Of a stretch of 64,000 bases of DNA, positions 47,548 through 58,393 are shown one piece after another (the stretch's first letter is position 1; every line of letters begins with the position of its first letter). Both the position numbers and the translations under genes were made by a program. The notes below the pieces were generated by a model, which saw only the letters and a program-made list of their open reading frames with translations, did not search any database and was not told where the DNA came from. Source of the stretch: Thermoplasmata archaeon (lineage in GTDB: Archaea; Thermoplasmatota; Thermoplasmata; GCA-020350865); the NCBI GenBank assembly GCA_020348445.1, contig CP070751.1:3843765-3907764 (forward strand). Direction: 5' to 3'.

Positions 47548-48615
47548 ATGGTTGCGGAGAACGAGGTTTCAAATTGGCTTACGGAATATGACAGAGATGA
47601 GCTGGTAATCGCCACGTTGTGTTCCCATACAAGCCTTCAGATTTTTGATGGTGCTAAAAAAGAGGGTTTCAAGACCCTTGGCATTTCCGTGGGCCCACCT
47701 GCTAAATTCTACGATGCCTTTCCAAAGGGAAAACCTGATGAATTTTTTGTTGTGGATAATCATTCGGACATCCCGGAAAAAGCCGAAGACTTGCGCCAAA
47801 GAAATGTGATATTAATTCCCCATGGCTCCTTTGTTGAGTACCTTGGCCCAGACAACTTTGAGAAACTCCAAGTACCGACCTTCGGGAACAGAAAAGTCCT
47901 GCGATGGGAATCCTCAAGGATCAAGGAAAGGGAGTGGCTAGAAAGTGCGGGAATAGAAATGCCTCAATTGTTCAAAGAACCAGAACAAATCGACAGGCCT
48001 GTTGTGGTTAAGTTCGATGGAGCAAAGGGAGGCAGGGGTTTTTTCATAGTAAAGAATTATAGGGAATTTGAAAAGGTGAATCCCACACAAAGATACACCA
48101 TACAGGAGTACGTCCTTGGCACCAGATATTATCTTCATTATTTTTACTCTCCAATAAAAGAGGATGGCTACAAGCTCTCAAAAGGTATATTGGAGCTATT
48201 GAGTATCGACAGACGTGACGAGACCAACATCGATGAAATGTATAAATTGGGTTCACAAGAGGAATTAAAAAAACTGAGTATTTATCCAAGTTTTGTCGTT
48301 ACTGGGAATGTTCCATTGACAATACGGGAATCACTTTTGGCTGAAGTCTTCGACATGGGGGAAAAGGTCGTTGAAAAATCCTTTGAGCTTTTTGGAGGCA
48401 TAATTGGACCTTTTTGTCTCGAAACAATTGTGAACGATGAGCTTCAGTTCAAGGTTTTCGAGGTCTCGGCCAGAATAGTCGCAGGTACGAATCCTTTTAT
48501 CTCCGGCTCACCATACTCCGAGTTTTTAGAGTCAAATCTCTCCACAGGCAGAAGAATTGCCCAGGAGATAAATATGGCCAATGAAATGGACAGGCTCGAT
48601 GAAATACTTAGCTGA
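47548..48615 (+). CDS. purP: Archaeal FAICAR synthetase PurP (formate + ATP dependent)
   Basis: TLCSHTSLQI, PHGSFVEY, GAKGGRG, EVSARIVAGTN, STGRRIA. Confidence 0.93.
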   Translation: MVAENEVSNWLTEYDRDELVIATLCSHTSLQIFDGAKKEGFKTLGISVGPPAKFYDAFPKGKPDEFFVVDNHSDIPEKAEDLRQRNVILIPHGSFVEYLGPDNFEKLQVPTFGNRKVLRWESSRIKEREWLESAGIEMPQLFKEPEQIDRPVVVKFDGAKGGRGFFIVKNYREFEKVNPTQRYTIQEYVLGTRYYLHYFYSPIKEDGYKLSKGILELLSIDRRDETNIDEMYKLGSQEELKKLSIYPSFVVTGNVPLTIRESLLAEVFDMGEKVVEKSFELFGGIIGPFCLETIVNDELQFKVFEVSARIVAGTNPFISGSPYSEFLESNLSTGRRIAQEINMANEMDRLDEILS

Positions 48616-48629
48616 TTTTTATTTTGGTA

Positions 48630-50195
48630 TCAATGTTTAAAGAGCCTTATTCCCGAAAACACCATGGACATACCGTGCTCGTTGGCTGCCGCAATAACCT
48701 CATCGTCCCGAACAGATCCTCCTGGCTGGATTATTGCAGCTACTCCGAACTTCGCTGCTGCGTCCACACCATCCCTGAACGGGAAAAATGCATCCGAGGC
48801 CATAACACTACCCTTGGCCTTCTCTCCTGCCTTGCGGGCAGCTATCATTGAAGCATCCACTCTACTCATTTGGCCTGCACCAATTCCCACTGTCTGCTCA
48901 CCTTGAGCTAGTAAAATGGAGTTTGACTTCACATGCTTCAGAACCTTGCAGGCGAAAACCATGGTTTTCAGCTCCGCCTCCGTGGGTTTCTTATCTGTAA
49001 CTACCTTCAAGCTCCTTGGATTGATTTCGGGGAAATCCCCTGTCTGAATCAAAAGACCGCCCTTGACCTTCATCATCTTGTGTTCTACAGGTGATTCTCT
49101 TTTAATAGGAACACCGGTTTTTAGCAGTCTTATGCTTTTTTTCTTAGATAGCAGATCCAGTGCATCTTTGTCAAATTCAGGGGCAATTACAGCTTCTACA
49201 AAGTGTTTCTTGATCTCTTCTGCCGTGGCCAAATCACAATCTCTGTTCAGACCTACTACACTGCCGAAAGCAGAAAGAGAATCTGCAGCTTCACCAATAC
49301 TATAAGCCTCAGAAATTGTATCAGCACTGGCGACACCACAAGGATTCGTGTGCTTTATTACAGATGCAGTGGGTCTATCAAAGTCCATAACGATATCTAA
49401 TGCTGAATCCAAATCGATGATATTGTTGAAGGATAGATCCTTTCCATGGAGCTTGATGGCGTTGCCAACACAAACTCCCGAAAATCTCGTGTTCATATAA
49501 AACGCAGCCTGTTGATGCGGATTTTCTCCATATCTAAGGTCCAACGCCTTTTCATATCCCAAACCTATTACATCTGGGAAGGGCTTTGAAGGTGTGAATT
49601 TCTTGTGGAGAAAGTCAGAAATCACACTGTCGTATTTTGCAGTGTGTTCAAAGGCTTCCAATGCCAGCTTGGAGGAGAAATCAGATGATATCCCTCCACC
49701 GTTAGTTTTCAGTTCCTGTAGTATATCATCATATCTTTCTGGATTTACAACAACAGCCACACCGTTGTGGTTTTTTGCAGCAGAGCGTATCATGGTGGGG
49801 CCACCGATATCTATGTTCTCAATGGCCTCATCTATGCTTACATCTTTTTTCTTAATGGTAGCCTCGAAAGGATAGAGATTAACGATCACCATGTCAATTG
49901 GCGTTATGCCATGCTCCTTTAATTGGGTCATATGTCTCTCAGAATCTCTAATGGCAAGTATACCCCCGTGGACTTTGGGGTGGAGCGTTTTTACCCTTCC
50001 ATTCAGCATCTCTGGGAACTTGGTATACTCTGATACAAGTTTAACGGGAACTCCATTTTCCTTAAGCAGTTTTGCTGTTCCACCTGTTGAAAGAATTTCC
50101 ACTTTAAGATCTGCAAGACCTCTTGCGAATTCCACAATACCCTGCTTGTCCGATACGCTAATTAATGCTCGATTTATCTTGATCAAGTTTCTCAC
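48630..50195 (-). CDS. purH: Bifunctional AICAR formyltransferase / IMP cyclohydrolase
   Basis: ALISVSDK, STGGT, GRVKTLHP, IDIGGP, LRYGENPHQ, KHTNPCG, GQMSRVD, ASDAFFPF. Confidence 0.96.
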   Translation of the reverse strand: MRNLIKINRALISVSDKQGIVEFARGLADLKVEILSTGGTAKLLKENGVPVKLVSEYTKFPEMLNGRVKTLHPKVHGGILAIRDSERHMTQLKEHGITPIDMVIVNLYPFEATIKKKDVSIDEAIENIDIGGPTMIRSAAKNHNGVAVVVNPERYDDILQELKTNGGGISSDFSSKLALEAFEHTAKYDSVISDFLHKKFTPSKPFPDVIGLGYEKALDLRYGENPHQQAAFYMNTRFSGVCVGNAIKLHGKDLSFNNIIDLDSALDIVMDFDRPTASVIKHTNPCGVASADTISEAYSIGEAADSLSAFGSVVGLNRDCDLATAEEIKKHFVEAVIAPEFDKDALDLLSKKKSIRLLKTGVPIKRESPVEHKMMKVKGGLLIQTGDFPEINPRSLKVVTDKKPTEAELKTMVFACKVLKHVKSNSILLAQGEQTVGIGAGQMSRVDASMIAARKAGEKAKGSVMASDAFFPFRDGVDAAAKFGVAAIIQPGGSVRDDEVIAAANEHGMSMVFSGIRLFKH

Positions 50196-52600: not shown

Positions 52601-52661
52601 CTTCAATCGTCTTTGAGAATGAAGATTCATATAAATCTAATTTGCTATCCATAATAAACAA

Positions 52662-52876
52662 TAGCTCCGGGCCGAAGAAATACGATATAATTGATATGTC
52701 ATTATATTTCTAGGCAAGGGGCTACTCTGGATGACGACTAGAAAAAGATAAAGAGTAGCTCCGGGCCGAAGAAATAAGACCTAATTGATGTTCTATTATA
52801 TTTCTAGGCAAGGGGCTACTCTGGGGGAAGACTAGAAAAAGATAAAGAGTAGCCCCGGGTGGATTCGAACCACCGC
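52662..52876 (-). repeat. Tandem array of tRNA-Gln 3'-end copies (two 94-bp units plus a T-arm/acceptor fragment)
   Basis: Plus-strand TAGCYCCGGG at 52662, 52756, 52850 and 52981; the units share TATATTTCTAGGCAAGGGGCTACTCTGG. Confidence 0.9.
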
Positions 52877-52980: not shown

Positions 52981-53054
52981 TAGCTCCGGGTGGATTCGAA
53001 CCACCGTCACGGGATCCAGAATCCCGCATGATTGACCACCTACAATACGGAGCT
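52981..53054 (-). tRNA. tRNA-Gln(CUG), archaeal type, A1-U72, discriminator A73
   Basis: AGCTCCG-TA-TTGT-AGGTGGTCAA-TCAT-G-CGGGA-TTCTGGA-TCCCG-TGAC-GGTGG-TTCGAAT-CCACC-CGGAGCT-A; TTTAATA box about 33 nt upstream. Confidence 0.93.
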
Positions 53055-53233: not shown

Positions 53234-54925
53234 TTAAGTTGTTTTTTGTTGCTGCTGTTTTTGAATCTTGGCCCATGTGTCCCTCAATCCGACGGTTCTG
53301 TTGAAAATCAGCTTCTCTGAGTTGGAATCTGGGTCCACACAGAAATAACCAAGTCGCTCGAATTGGATTCGATCCAACGGTTTAAGGTTCTTTACTGCAG
53401 GTTCTATCTTACATGATGTTAGAACTTCGAGGGAATTAGGATTAATGAAATCCTTAAAGTCCGCATCCTTATGTCCCGCGGGGTCCTTCTCTGTAAAAAG
53501 CTTGTCGTACAACCTAACCTCGGCATCCATTGCGTGGCGAGCTGAAACCCAATGCAATGTGGATTTTACTTTACGACCATCAGGTGCATTGCCCCCTCGC
53601 GTATCGGGATCCACGGTACATCTGAGCTCAACGACCTTCCCATTCTGTTTAATAGCCTCCTTGCACTTAACAAAGTACGCATATCTGAACCGCACCTCAC
53701 GACCTGGTGCTAAGCGGTAGAACTTCTTGGGAGGTTCCTCCATAAAATCCTCTTCCTCGATGCAAAGCTCCCTGGAAAAGGGTACCTTTCGAGTCCCTGC
53801 TGATGGGTCCTCTGGATTGTTTACAGCCTCCATCTCCTCCACCTTATCATCGGGGTAATTTTCAATAACCACCTTGAGCGGTTGAAGTACACCCATGAAC
53901 CTTGGGGCTGTTTTATTCAAATCTTCCCTTATACAATATTCAAGAAATTCGAAGTCAACCATACTGTTTACCTTGGCCACGCCGATTCGCTTGCAGAAAT
54001 TTCTAATTGCAGCTGGAGAATAACCTCGTCTTCTCATTCCGCTTATCGTGGGTAACCTGGGATCATCCCACCCATTGACGTGACCCTCATCCACCAATTG
54101 TTTGAGCATACGCTTGCTCATTACAGTATAGGTAATATTCAACCTGGCGAATTCAATTTGTTGTGGATGATAGACCTCTATTTGATCCAAGAACCAATCG
54201 TATAAAGGTCTGTGATTCTCGAACTCTAAAGTGCAGATGGAATGCGTGATGTTCTCGATTGAATCTTCAAGCCCGTGTGCCCAGTCGTACATGGGATAGA
54301 TGCACCATTTTTCACCTGTGTTGTGATGACTCGCATGTAGGATTCGATATACAATTGGGTCCCGCATATTCATATTTGGGTGCGACATGTCTATCTTGGC
54401 CCTAAGAACCTTTTCACCATCTCCAAACTCACCAGCCCTCATTCTTGTGAACACATCAAGGTTTTCTTCTATTGACCTATCACGATAGGGACTTTTCTGT
54501 CCGGGACTTGTAAGGGTTCCTCTTGTTCTGCTGATTTCATCTGCAGTTGAATCATCTACGTATGCCTTACCTCTTTTAACCAACTCAACAGCATAATCAT
54601 ACATTTGATCAAAGTAATCCGAAGCAAAAAAGAGCCTATCCTCCCAGTCAAATCCAAGCCATCTTACATCCTCGATTATAGATCTAACATATTCCTCTTC
54701 CTCTTTTGCTGGATTGGTATCATCGAATCTGAGATTGCACTTGCCCTTGTAATCCTCTGCTATGCCAAAGTTCAGGCAGATAGACTTTGCATGCCCAATG
54801 TGCAGATAGCCGTTGGGTTCGGGTGGGAACCTTGTATGAACTCGACCACCGTATTTATTCGTCCTTAGGTCTTCATTGATTATATCGCGAATGAAATCGT
54901 GAGCCTCTGCCTCTTCACTGGGCAT
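53234..54925 (-). CDS. glnS: Glutaminyl-tRNA synthetase, bacterial type
   Basis: [69 protein letters not shown]; AAGGTGA RBS before ATG 54925. Confidence 0.97.
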
Positions 54926-55075
54926 ATCTTTCACCTTAATGAGTTTGGGTTAGTAACATTTACTATTATAATTATTTTGTTAAAAGTTTTGATCTATGAA
55001 ATAAATATATTCACTCTCCCCTTACACACAAATATATATATAAAAAACAAATTCTGTTTTTATGGAGGTTAATAA

Positions 55076-55435
55076 ATGGCAAGAGTAGTACATTTCGATA
55101 TTAGTGCAGAAAATCCACAAGAATTGAGAAAATTTTATGAAACTGTTTTTGGATGGAGGTTTGAGAAATGGGAAGGCCCCATGGAGTACTGGATGATCAT
55201 GACAGGGGAGGGACCTGGAATCGATGGAGGAATGTCAAAGAGGGGAGAGCAGAACATGGACATAAATACCATCGACGTCCCAAATCTGGATGAGTTTATT
55301 CAAAAGGTTCAGGAAAAAAGAGCCACCATTGTTGCGCCTAAGATAGCTATTCCGGGAATTGGCTGGTATGCGGTTTTCAAGGATTCCGAGGGTAACATAT
55401 TCGGCATGATGCAGGACGACAAAGAAGCGAAATGA
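55076..55435 (+). CDS. VOC/glyoxalase family protein
   Basis: VVHFDI, FYETVFGW, IPGIGWYAVFKDSEGNIFGM; GGAGGT RBS. Confidence 0.88.
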   Translation: MARVVHFDISAENPQELRKFYETVFGWRFEKWEGPMEYWMIMTGEGPGIDGGMSKRGEQNMDINTIDVPNLDEFIQKVQEKRATIVAPKIAIPGIGWYAVFKDSEGNIFGMMQDDKEAK

Positions 55436-55464: not shown

Positions 55465-55770
55465 TCTATCAGCCCCGGCCTCTTCGTGCTTAAGAACCCA
55501 ACATATCCAAGCATAACACGAAGAGAAAGGGGCTGTTTCGTTTCTCTACAATTTAAATTAGAGAAACAGCCCCGGCCAGAATCGAACTGGCGCCAAGAGA
55601 TCCAAAGTCTCTGATGCTACCTCTACACCACGGGGCTATTTGGTTGGAACATTAATTCAGTCAAATAGCCCCTTCGTAGTAAGAAAAGCTTTGGGTTCTT
55701 GCTAGGTTTTCTTTTCTTCCTACCACGGGGCTATTTTACCACCACGGGGCTTCTTAGTTTTATTTATACT
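55465..55770. repeat. 406-bp-period direct repeat unit A (contains tRNA-Gln UUG)
   Basis: Landmarks recur at exactly +406: 55471/55877, 55529/55935, 55567/55973, 55662/56068, 55721/56127. Confidence 0.92.
55567..55637 (-). tRNA. tRNA-Gln(UUG), atypical, discriminator G73
   Basis: AGCCCCG-TG-GTGT-AGAGGTA-GCAT-C-AGAGA-CTTTGGA-TCTCT-TGGC-GCCAG-TTCGATT-CTGGC-CGGGGCT-G. Confidence 0.9.
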
Positions 55771-55870
55771 TTGATACGAATCCCCTTAGCATTAAGAAAA
55801 GCGTTCAAATTCTAATGGGAATTCTTTTCTTAATACCACGGGACTACTTTACTTTTATTTATTCAATTCT

Positions 55871-56176
55871 ACTTTCAGCCCCGGCCTCCTCGTGCTTAAG
55901 ATCCAAGCGTTTTTAAGCATAACGCGAGGGGGAAGGGGCTGTTTCGTTTCTCTACAATTTAAATTAGAGAAACAGCCCCGGCCAGATTCGAACTGGCGCC
56001 AAGAGATCCAGAGTCTCTGATGCTACCTCTACACCACGGGGCTATTTGGTTGGAACATTAATTCATTCAAATAGCCCCTTTGCAGTAAAAAAAGCGTTGG
56101 GATAGTGTTGTGTTTTCTTTTTTTACTACCACGGGGCTACTGCACTCTTAAACAACCTCGGGGCTTATTTGATGCA
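55871..56176. repeat. 406-bp-period direct repeat unit B (contains tRNA-Gln CUG)
   Basis: See unit A. Confidence 0.92.
55973..56043 (-). tRNA. tRNA-Gln(CUG), atypical, discriminator G73
   Basis: Same body as 55567-55637 except anticodon CTG and T-loop TTCGAAT. Confidence 0.9.
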
Positions 56177-56229: not shown

Positions 56230-57792
56230 CTATTTGGCTACTTCCCCGATTCTTCCCACAACAAATCCCTTGTCCAAGGTGGATAAAAAATAACCTAGCC
56301 TAGGCCCATGCTTCTGATCGAGTATTGCCTGATATACCAGTTGAAAGGCCGTTTTAGACTTGATATTCTGGATCTGAGCCAATTCATAAATCGCATTATG
56401 GATGGCATCAGGTGCCCATTCCTCTTGGGTGAGCTTGATTGATAGGTCTTCAAGGTATTTCTTATGGTCGGATTCCAAGGTTATCTTAGGAGTTTCCTTT
56501 GCGATTGAGAACTTAACCTTTTCAGGTGCAAAATTGTCAAGCCAGAACTTCACACATCCTATTCTCTGCTTTAGGTGATTCTCATCCTCTTTGCTGAGAC
56601 TTTCAAAATGCTCTGCCCTCTTCAAGATATCTAGGATTCCTTCAAAGTCCTCATTGATCTGAACAACACTTACAAGATGTCTATAAGGTATTTGCAAAGG
56701 AAGTTTAGAGGGAAGGGAAAAAGGCTGAGAGAGTTCATAGGTTCTCGCCAATTCCTCCTCAATCTTCTCGATTCGTTTGGACTTGTCATCTGCGCTACCT
56801 TCGAAATATCTTTTCTCTGTTGAGTCGTATTCGTCCACGAGGTTTAGAATTCCAAGGCCTGGATCAAAATCAAGATGCTTAATTGGATTGTTTCTAAGAA
56901 CAAAGTACCTGAAAACCTCGGGAGGGGTCATCTTAAGCATTTTGGCTGCGCTGATCACAACACCAGTCGAGGATGACATGGCACCCTTACCCTTTAACTG
57001 AATCCATTCGTAGACAACATATTGTGGAGCCTTCCTATCAAAGACCTCCTCTGAAATCCTCTTTGCTGTGTCGTACGATCCTCCAGCTGCTGCATGATCT
57101 TTACCAAAAGGTTCGAATGTAACCCCTAAAAACCACCACCTTGCAGGCCAATCAACCCTCCACGGTAGCTTGCCATCGTCTTTTCGCAAATCCGCTTTAC
57201 CTTCATGACCACAAGAGCAAGTATAATTGACATATGGAAATTCATAGCCAATGACCTTGGTTGTGGTAAGCCGCCCACATTCACTGCACTTCGGATTGTA
57301 AGGAAACCAGTCATCGGGAAGATCACGTTTTGAAATATCCTGGAGTATCTCCTTTATCCTATCTTTATTGTCCAGCACCTTTCTAGATGCCTCTGTGTAC
57401 ATTCCCTGAGCGTACATTTCATGGGAGAGAAGGACATTGGCCTCTATCCCAAGAGTTTTTGCAGCATCGAGAAATGGAGTAAGAAAATGCTCGGCATAGG
57501 ACTTGTGGCTACTGCATGGACAGGGAATTTCGGAGAGAGGTTTACCCACGTGCTCCTTATAGCTTTCATCTAAAAAAGGATAAACCTTACGAAGGGGGTC
57601 GATGGTATCGCCAATGTATATCAATTGGGCTTCAACATTCTTCTGTTTAAGACCCCGAGTTATTACCTCACCTGTAAGAATCTCCCGCATATTGCCAACA
57701 TGGATGTCTCCAGAAGGGGTAATCCCTGTAGCTATCACATGCCTTTCAGAAAAACTTTGGAGCCTCTTACTCTCAACGTCAACCCAGTGCAT
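56230..57792 (-). CDS. lysS: Class I lysyl-tRNA synthetase
   Basis: MHWVD, TGITPSGDIHVGN, GKLPWRVDWPARW, GKDHAAAGGS, MSSSTG, GPRLG. Confidence 0.95.
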   Translation of the reverse strand: MHWVDVESKRLQSFSERHVIATGITPSGDIHVGNMREILTGEVITRGLKQKNVEAQLIYIGDTIDPLRKVYPFLDESYKEHVGKPLSEIPCPCSSHKSYAEHFLTPFLDAAKTLGIEANVLLSHEMYAQGMYTEASRKVLDNKDRIKEILQDISKRDLPDDWFPYNPKCSECGRLTTTKVIGYEFPYVNYTCSCGHEGKADLRKDDGKLPWRVDWPARWWFLGVTFEPFGKDHAAAGGSYDTAKRISEEVFDRKAPQYVVYEWIQLKGKGAMSSSTGVVISAAKMLKMTPPEVFRYFVLRNNPIKHLDFDPGLGILNLVDEYDSTEKRYFEGSADDKSKRIEKIEEELARTYELSQPFSLPSKLPLQIPYRHLVSVVQINEDFEGILDILKRAEHFESLSKEDENHLKQRIGCVKFWLDNFAPEKVKFSIAKETPKITLESDHKKYLEDLSIKLTQEEWAPDAIHNAIYELAQIQNIKSKTAFQLVYQAILDQKHGPRLGYFLSTLDKGFVVGRIGEVAK

Positions 57793-57796
57793 TCTC

Positions 57797-58393
57797 TCAC
57801 GCAATCGTACGGGCTCTAATAAGCGATCTAGTGGGCACACCATCCATTTCGTACATAGGTGTCTTGTTCACAATAACCACGGACAACAAAGGATTGGCTC
57901 CCTGCTCCTTCAAATCGGCAATGGCACACTTCATAACATGTCCGGTGCTTATCACGTCATCCACAATTACTACATCCTTGCCCTCCAAGGTAGCATAATT
58001 CGAACTAAAGGTACCCTTGCCTTCATCGGTAACTGGTGGCCTGTAAATACCAAGCTCCAGTCCCAGATCCTCGGCAACCATTGTAGCAAAAGGTATTCCA
58101 TTAATTGCTATACCCACCACGCAATCCACCTTTTCTATCTCCTGCTTTTCCATCTCCTCGAGGATGACATCGGAAAACAAACCCGCTATTAAACCGATGC
58201 GACCTCCGTATACACCGATTGATCTCCAACCAACCTTCACATCTATGGGAGGCTTCTCAACCTTCACATTCCTTGTCAAAAGCCAAGATACAGTATCAAC
58301 AGAAAGGTGCAGTTCATGAGATATTTCACTCTCACTGAGACCGTTTCTCTTGAACTCTAGAGCCTTTTCTACGAGAGCATCGATACTTTTCAT
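57797..58393 (-). CDS. Orotate-PRTase-like protein with N-terminal HTH (GfcR-like)
   Basis: N-terminal EISHELHLSVDTVSWLL HTH, DVKVGWRSIG, FSSNYA, VIVDDVISTG. Confidence 0.85.
   Translation of the reverse strand: MKSIDALVEKALEFKRNGLSESEISHELHLSVDTVSWLLTRNVKVEKPPIDVKVGWRSIGVYGGRIGLIAGLFSDVILEEMEKQEIEKVDCVVGIAINGIPFATMVAEDLGLELGIYRPPVTDEGKGTFSSNYATLEGKDVVIVDDVISTGHVMKCAIADLKEQGANPLLSVVIVNKTPMYEMDGVPTRSLIRARTIA

Follow-up and report, generated by a model that had tools for sequence, protein, structure and literature searches.

A glnS gene in an archaeal genome raises two questions: whether its host charges tRNA-Gln directly with glutamine, and how the gene came to be there. Reviews up to 2022 describe all or almost all archaea as being without glutaminyl-tRNA synthetase (GlnRS); the reason they give is that archaeal tRNA-Gln, which has A1:U72 and A73, is incompatible with the enzyme (PMC9499178, PMC8007984, PMC8762117, PMC3439900). 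One 2022 review writes 'almost all archaea', citing Di Giulio 2020, and one group asserts GlnRS transfer to Archaea without giving detail. No description of a Thermoplasmata GlnRS, of its tRNA cassette or of GatDE loss was found in the literature searched. Di Giulio 2020 may, reportedly, list archaeal GlnRS genes.

The gene lies in a window of 64,000 nucleotides (the whole stretch of DNA that was analysed) within a single-contig 5.16 Mb Thermoplasmata genome with 82% completeness and 3.8% contamination. The same contig encodes an archaeal GluRS, two GatD, two GatE and one AsnRS; GatA was not found on it. Among public records, those nearest to it are MAGs named as Thermoplasmata or Methanomassiliicoccales, three closed chromosomes among them. 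Given the archaeal GluRS, GatD and GatE and the names of these relatives, the host is an archaeon.

As an enzyme, the GlnRS is ordinary. It is unusual in its host, in the remodelled tRNAs linked to its gene and in the presence of direct and indirect routes side by side. We are confident of an explanation in which a functional GlnRS was acquired once, long ago, from a bacterium by a Thermoplasmata ancestor, was then inherited and spread within the class, and coexists in this genome with the ancestral route.

Identity of the glnS product

The glnS frame is open from 53234 to 54934 (minus strand). The GTG start at 54934 given by the ORF lister falls within the GGTGA motif; the start is most likely the ATG at 54925, five bases downstream of that motif (Table 1). 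This start Met is kept in 22 of 29 archaeal GlnRS orthologues. The ribosome-binding site and the gene end of 54925 proposed in the earlier note both agree with this placement.

Sequence comparison confirms that the window protein is a true GlnRS of bacterial type, as had been claimed from the letters alone. It scores 755.4 bits against the NCBIfam glnS model TIGR00440 (cut-off 425.8); against the archaeal GluRS model gltX_arch it scores 365.8 bits, under the cut-off of 401.75. Pfam identifies the class I Glu/Gln catalytic domain (PF00749, 374 bits) and both beta-barrel anticodon-binding domains (PF03950, PF20974). The alignment with E. coli GlnS is collinear over the full length at 58% identity, and the HIGH and VMSKR motifs align with their E. 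coli counterparts. Among solved structures, P. aeruginosa and E. coli GlnRS match best (718-739 bits), ahead of eukaryotic GlnRS at 431-491 bits (human and yeast 442-491) and GluRS at 185-289 bits.

The motifs that the earlier note listed as specific to GlnRS are all in the translation, among them Cys in place of Arg, RGTLT with the E. coli Leu136 wedge, QFER, HIGH and MSKR. In the GluRS of this genome, Arg occupies the alignment column of GlnRS Cys229. The glutamine-selecting residues R30, Y211, C229 and Q255 (E. coli numbering) are present in the window GlnRS. Across the archaeal orthologues, R30, E34, D66, Y211, C229, F233 and Q255, which form the glutamine and ATP site, are invariant (29/29), as are the anticodon-reading R341, R402 and R410. 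Anticodon-reading Q517 is found in 28 of the 29; the remaining sequence has a gap at both Q517 and R520. Given this conservation and the loss of GatDE in relatives (see below), the enzyme very probably works.

Several substitutions are typical of the archaeal clade. Those at E. coli positions 318, 325 and 326 neighbour the G10-reading residue (G10 being in the D-stem). Others are found at 342, 411, 483 and 510; positions 342 and 411 adjoin anticodon-reading arginines. The proximity of 318, 325, 326, 342 and 411 to tRNA-reading residues is suggestive. At the known acceptor-stem contact residues, no archaeal-clade-specific change reaches an 85%/85% conservation criterion. D235N was considered as an adaptation to C3:G70 and rejected, as it is equally common in bacterial relatives. 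The variants at Leu136 (V, Y, W, T) were likewise rejected as a correlate of the discriminator; they do not track base 73. This genome's GlnRS retains the E. coli Leu136.

Table 1. Features of the glnS locus, in window coordinates
Feature	Position	Strand	Details
PurP-like gene	47548-48615	+	DUF1246/DUF1297, ATP-grasp; archaeal
purH	48630-50195	-	bifunctional, bacterial-style
94-bp tandem units	52654..52859	-	2.2 copies; each with a copy of the A73 tRNA 3' acceptor strand
tRNA 3'-half remnant	52842-52875	-	34-nt copy of the A73 tRNA-Gln T-arm and 3' end
tRNA-Gln(CUG), 74 nt	52981..53054	-	A1:U72, long D-loop, A73 (ordinary archaeal type)
glnS, glutaminyl-tRNA synthetase	53234..54925	-	563 aa from ATG 54925
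GGTGA Shine-Dalgarno-like motif	54931..54935	-	5 nt upstream of ATG; read from the sequence
Small glyoxalase/VOC-like ORF	55076..55435	+	PF00903, weak; between glnS and the G73 tRNA pair
Tandem duplication holding the G73 pair	55466-56139		406-bp unit; 268 nt, 90% identical
tRNA-Gln(UUG), 71 nt	55567..55637	-	A1:U72, 7-nt D-loop, G73; ARAGORN, RF00005 59.9 bits
tRNA-Gln(CUG), 71 nt	55973..56043	-	A1:U72, 7-nt D-loop, G73; tandem duplicate of the UUG gene
lysS, class I archaeal-type LysRS	56230..57843	-	TIGR00467, 552 bits; upstream neighbour of glnS

Comparison with known GlnRS types

The window protein resembles E. coli GlnS (PDB 1GTR/1QTQ/1O0B) and P. aeruginosa GlnRS (PDB 5BNZ, 739 bits) in its domain set, in HIGH/MSK and in the residues that select glutamine and read the anticodon. 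It differs from them in its host, an archaeon, and in the setting of its gene, which lies in a tRNA-glnS-tRNA cassette.

The top NCBIfam model is NF011291, the Deinococcus-type GlnRS/YqeY fusion (PDB 2HZ7), at 872 bits against a cut-off of 681. Of the 769 model positions, 9-566 are matched, and the protein stops at that point; the C-terminal YqeY/GatB-like domain of the fusions (about 200 residues) is missing, and the window GlnRS does not belong to the fused type. The nearest bacterial relatives include GlnRS/YqeY-fused forms, with longer matches (loci L074 and L075). Nor does the window GlnRS belong to the eukaryotic type: it has no N-terminal extension (about 200-250 residues), it scores 718-739 bits with bacterial GlnRS against 442-491 with human and yeast, and trees nest it among bacteria.

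A GlnRS gene is also mentioned in passing for Heimdallarchaeia, next to cox genes (bioRxiv 10.1101/2024.07.04.601786). By the description in that preprint, it is likewise a GlnRS in an archaeal lineage, contrary to the reviews; it differs from Thermoplasmata glnS in phylum and in gene neighbourhood.

Distribution of glnS and loss of GatDE

Of 41 close relatives, 14 have a TIGR00440 match over the cut-off. In a sample of 251 species spread evenly across the class Thermoplasmata, glnS is found by the same measure in 36 species belonging to 16 of the 84 genera. Some families carry it in all sampled members; by TIGR00440 it is absent from the largest sampled families (0/30, 0/27, 0/29, 0/33 and 0/27). 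A glnS gene with tRNA-Gln genes beside it is also present in three other closed archaeal chromosomes.

A search of the 251 genomes with TIGR02153 (E <= 1e-60) did not find gatD in 26. Sixteen of these are glnS-positive, of which 14 were listed and 2 inferred from family tallies. Over all sampled species, gatD is not found in 16/36 glnS-positive versus 10/215 glnS-negative genomes; among genomes at least 90% complete, the figures are 6/18 versus 1/154. Two unpublished genomes (G097 and G211) are counted in these tallies; both are glnS-negative and gatD-positive, and the conclusions are independent of both. The class-wide association of glnS with GatDE loss, which emerges from the survey of relatives that the earlier note suggested, is new. 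The surveyed genomes are interrelated, and the counts overstate independence: GatDE loss among glnS-positives amounts to roughly three or four independent families or losses, not sixteen.

The pattern is clearest within families. No gatD is found in any of the five sampled genomes of family f20 or in either of the two of f29, all of which are glnS-positive. In family f9, seven genomes have only glnS, three have only gatD and none has both. Four glnS-positive genomes that are 92-96% complete (G044, G048, G113 and G120) have none of gatD, gatE and gatB by the searches made, and the same three genes are not found in glnS-positive G012. In G183, also glnS-positive, no gatE is found, and the lack of gatD was deduced from the tally for its family. 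In at least three families, GatDE has apparently been replaced outright by GlnRS. The amidotransferase-free genomes contain only short-type tRNA-Gln, with A73.

Loss has also occurred within the window's own genus, where a closed 3.2 Mb chromosome retains gatD only as a 56-aa remnant. In the closed same-genus genome the G73 tRNAs are lost, with a 26-nt remnant left upstream of glnS; a 74-nt A73 tRNA is kept beside the gene.

The genome analysed here retains the GatD and GatE genes, two of each, at C1:3724387-3729503, 4116284-4117471 and 2877665-2879575 (outside the window). It keeps both pairs despite the presence of AsnRS and with GatA not found. Several glnS-negative Thermoplasmata also have a second, lower-scoring GatD/GatE set.

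tRNA-Gln genes linked to glnS

In the earlier note, a tRNA figures only in the proposed read check across lysS-glnS-tRNA. The window in fact has three tRNA-Gln genes around glnS (ARAGORN; Rfam). The genome has five tRNA-Gln genes: the G73 pair, two ordinary A73 genes and one of bacterial type. One ordinary gene lies immediately downstream of glnS and the other at C1:223988. The members of the G73 pair, which lie within a tandem duplication, differ at the anticodon wobble base.

Throughout, tRNAs were numbered from the T-loop, and the acceptor stem and position 73 were derived on that basis. In nearly all fetched archaeal loci, a tRNA-Gln(CUG) gene lies just upstream of glnS and/or a tRNA-Gln(UUG) gene lies just downstream; most bacterial glnS loci checked have no tRNA-Gln nearby. 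The archaeal glnS-linked tRNAs are 71-72 nt long, with a 7-8-nt D-loop and a perfect 7-bp acceptor stem that begins A1:U72, G2:C71, C3:G70. That glnS is almost always flanked by tRNA-Gln combining the archaeal A1:U72 stem with a short, bacterial-sized D-loop is a new observation.

The tRNAs of glnS-negative Thermoplasmata differ in size. They are 73 nt long in all 12 cleanly delimited genes, with a 9-nt D-loop and, with one G73 exception, A73; 71-72 nt tRNA-Gln occurs in 11 glnS-positive genomes. The few bacterial tRNA-Gln genes in the fetched loci have 71 nt, a 7-nt D-loop, U1:A72 and G73. The glnS-linked tRNAs share 82-85% identity with the ordinary tRNA-Gln found in glnS-negative Thermoplasmata. 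This identity, the archaeal stem and the bacterial-sized loop mark them as native archaeal tRNAs trimmed to bacterial D-loop size; an import of these tRNAs from bacteria was rejected on account of the same identity and the archaeal acceptor stem. As discriminator, this genus and several other lineages have G73; the others have A73. G73 was rejected as a general mark of GlnRS-linked tRNAs, as the GatDE-less lineages have A73.

The identity set of tRNA-Gln is known from E. coli. The archaeal glnS-linked tRNAs depart from it at two pairs: the E. coli set includes U1:A72 and G3:C70 (PMC9976931), in place of which they have A1:U72 and C3:G70.

The bacterial-type tRNA-Gln(UUG) gene lies outside the window, at C1:1131962-1132035 (locus L216:7963-8036), and has U1:A72, G2:C71, G3:C70 and G73. 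It is about 750 nt downstream of a gene for a P22-like portal protein (PF16510, 291 bits), and the surrounding region looks like a head-tailed provirus. A tRNA-Gln carried by a provirus in this way would suit the imported GlnRS rather than GatDE.

Both sides of glnS bear further traces of tRNA sequence. Around the G73 pair, 20-nt copies of the tRNA 5' acceptor strand (CACCACGGGGCT, plus strand) are scattered at eight sites. On the other side, the 94-bp units and the 34-nt tRNA remnant, which is 131 nt downstream of the A73 tRNA-Gln gene, look like leftovers of repeated insertion or duplication at that gene.

Probable direct and indirect charging in one genome

The archaeal indirect route, as described for M. 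thermautotrophicus, uses a non-discriminating GluRS and GatDE (PMC2943598, PMC2978374). It yields the same end product as GlnRS, Gln-tRNA-Gln, but in two steps via Glu-tRNA-Gln, and it is mechanistically unrelated to direct charging. This route is also encoded in the genome analysed here, and the ordinary A73 tRNA-Gln genes fit it.

In the explanation preferred here, GlnRS would attach glutamine directly to tRNA-Gln. Its preferred substrates would most likely be the tRNAs whose genes travel with glnS, in which an archaeal A1:U72 stem is combined with a bacterial-sized D-loop and length and, in this genus, with the bacterial discriminator G73. The direct route would coexist with the non-discriminating GluRS, GatDE and the two ordinary A73 tRNA-Gln genes. 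This genome would thus represent an intermediate state, and other families would have dropped the GatDE route altogether. The idea that direct charging replaces GatDE fits the relatives, which are often without GatDE, but not this genome, which keeps it. Since two GatD and two GatE are kept here, GlnRS need not be essential in this genome.

How strictly the tRNAs are divided between the routes is a separate matter. One possibility, which we regard as somewhat doubtful, is two parallel, partly insulated charging systems: GlnRS for the G73 short-D-loop pair and GluRS/GatDE for the A73 long-D-loop pair. The short D-loop and G73 would then be GlnRS determinants and/or GluRS/GatDE antideterminants. 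If true, this would be a natural snapshot of one aminoacylation route replacing another, and a provirus with a bacterial-type tRNA-Gln would exploit the imported GlnRS. It would also directly answer Tumbula et al. (2000), who are said to have proposed that archaeal tRNA-Gln identity blocks GlnRS transfer. Two findings speak against a strict partition: the A73-only state of the sister closed genome, and the unchanged acceptor-stem contacts of the archaeal enzymes. As the closed sister genome is without G73 tRNAs or gatD and still has an A73 tRNA, the enzyme probably also accepts the ordinary 74-nt A73 tRNA.

A weaker possibility is that GlnRS, in this genome, is a paralogue that is redundant or has become specialised. 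GluRS and GatDE would still supply the bulk of Gln-tRNA, and GlnRS would charge only the linked G73 tRNAs, conditionally, for example during growth at plentiful glutamine or for decoding in particular conditions. The two full GatD/GatE sets and two ordinary A73 genes retained here speak for it, as does the G73 pair, a recent tandem duplication that has stayed next to glnS. We consider it unlikely. Relatives with the same orthologue have no amidotransferase, which indicates that the enzyme can carry the whole load; the closed sister genome is already without gatD, and the protein bears no sequence sign of changed activity.

With the preferred explanation of an old, functional acquisition, three observations bear on the incompatibility account of why archaea have no GlnRS: a GlnRS of bacterial type has become fixed across a good part of Thermoplasmata, at least three families have apparently exchanged GatDE for it completely, and the reshaped tRNA-Gln linked to its gene keeps A1:U72. 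Together they make the question of why there is no archaeal GlnRS directly testable with natural enzyme/tRNA pairs, which represent different stages of route replacement. These archaeal GlnRS/tRNA pairs are also candidate orthogonal sets for genetic-code engineering.

Origin of the archaeal GlnRS

The closest non-archaeal homologues of the window GlnRS are bacterial, with 70-74% identity. Trees were built from archaeal, bacterial and giant-virus GlnRS, and used as outgroups 20 giant-virus sequences from IMG/VR, which are closer than GluRS; all ten giant-virus genes that were scored score higher on the glnS model than on GluRS models. All 27 archaeal GlnRS group in a single clade (SH-aLRT 96) whose sister is an Ignavibacterium sequence (SH-aLRT 95). 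Together these lie within a crown of Planctomycetota, Chloroflexota, Nitrospirota and others; E. coli-like GlnRS and other viral-contig bacterial GlnRS clades diverge earlier. A data set of 46 sequences without GluRS gives the same picture (archaeal clade SH-aLRT 99). Support for the nesting in bacteria is given as SH-aLRT throughout.

The trees fit the horizontal acquisition proposed in the earlier note, and the clustering with GluRS that it named as a refutation is not seen. As the archaeal GlnRS form one clade nested inside bacterial GlnRS, the trees indicate a single old transfer from a bacterium to Thermoplasmata, and do not pin down the exact donor. The transfer is lineage-wide and old rather than specific to this genome. 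Placements within the clade are partly off the genome groupings; for example, G005, a 'same order' genome, groups with family f17. Later GlnRS transfers among archaea are possible.

The reverse direction is very improbable. In that case this archaeal lineage would have had GlnRS ancestrally and its clade would be basal, with bacteria obtaining the enzyme from archaea. This view draws on the tree rooted on the genome's GluRS alone, where the root falls among archaeal sequences and all bacteria form one clade (100). That root sits on a branch of about 10 substitutions/site and was rejected as a textbook long-branch artefact; once the 20 giant-virus outgroups are added, two data sets place the archaeal clade deep within the bacteria. 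In addition, no GlnRS was found in most sampled Thermoplasmata families.

The IMG/VR loci (L177-L206) include many giant-virus-sized contigs (up to 476 kb) that encode GlnRS. Some of the giant-virus-contig GlnRS branch within bacterial GlnRS and not with eukaryote-like viral ones.

Genomic context of glnS

The gene order CN-hydrolase, lysS, tRNA, glnS, tRNA, 305-aa ORF, purH is repeated in an independent MAG, with neighbour proteins 56-87% identical to those of the window. The nearest neighbours of glnS also recur in the closed chromosome CP070739.1 of the same genus. The distance of glnS from the genome mean in codon usage ranks at the 38th percentile, and the gene has a GC content of 44.7%, versus 42.5 +/- 3.8% for the long genes of the genome. 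The synteny in independent MAGs and closed chromosomes, together with the native codon usage, establishes that glnS is native to the genome and not an assembly artefact. With its presence in 36 of 251 species, this also upholds the description of the gene as domesticated.

The idea that the archaeal contig gained a stray fragment of bacterial glnS through chimeric assembly or bin contamination could appeal to the bacterial identity of the closest non-archaeal homologues and to a genome only 82% complete with 3.8% contamination, but it is effectively refuted by the single 5.16 Mb contig, by independent MAGs of different studies that repeat the order, with archaeal lysS, purH and tRNA-Gln of archaeal type to either side, by the three other closed chromosomes with glnS and adjacent tRNA-Gln, by native codon usage and GC, and by an archaeal GlnRS clade that is 26-30% diverged from any bacterial sequence.

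The neighbouring genes are archaeal, as had been noted: the class I LysRS and a PurP-like gene are both in the window. Linkage of lysS and glnS is conserved across several families, and a class I lysS adjoins the tRNA-Gln/glnS cassette in loci L015, L016, L019, L026, L027, L032 and L038. Beyond the genus, the LysRS next to the cassette shares only 28-32% identity with the window LysRS; this could reflect an old linkage or two distinct LysRS types. A 91% identical copy of the small glyoxalase/VOC-like ORF occupies the same place in a closed genome of the same genus.

The archaeal PurP-like gene adjoins a bifunctional purH of bacterial style. The genome thus holds both solutions for the AICAR formylation step.
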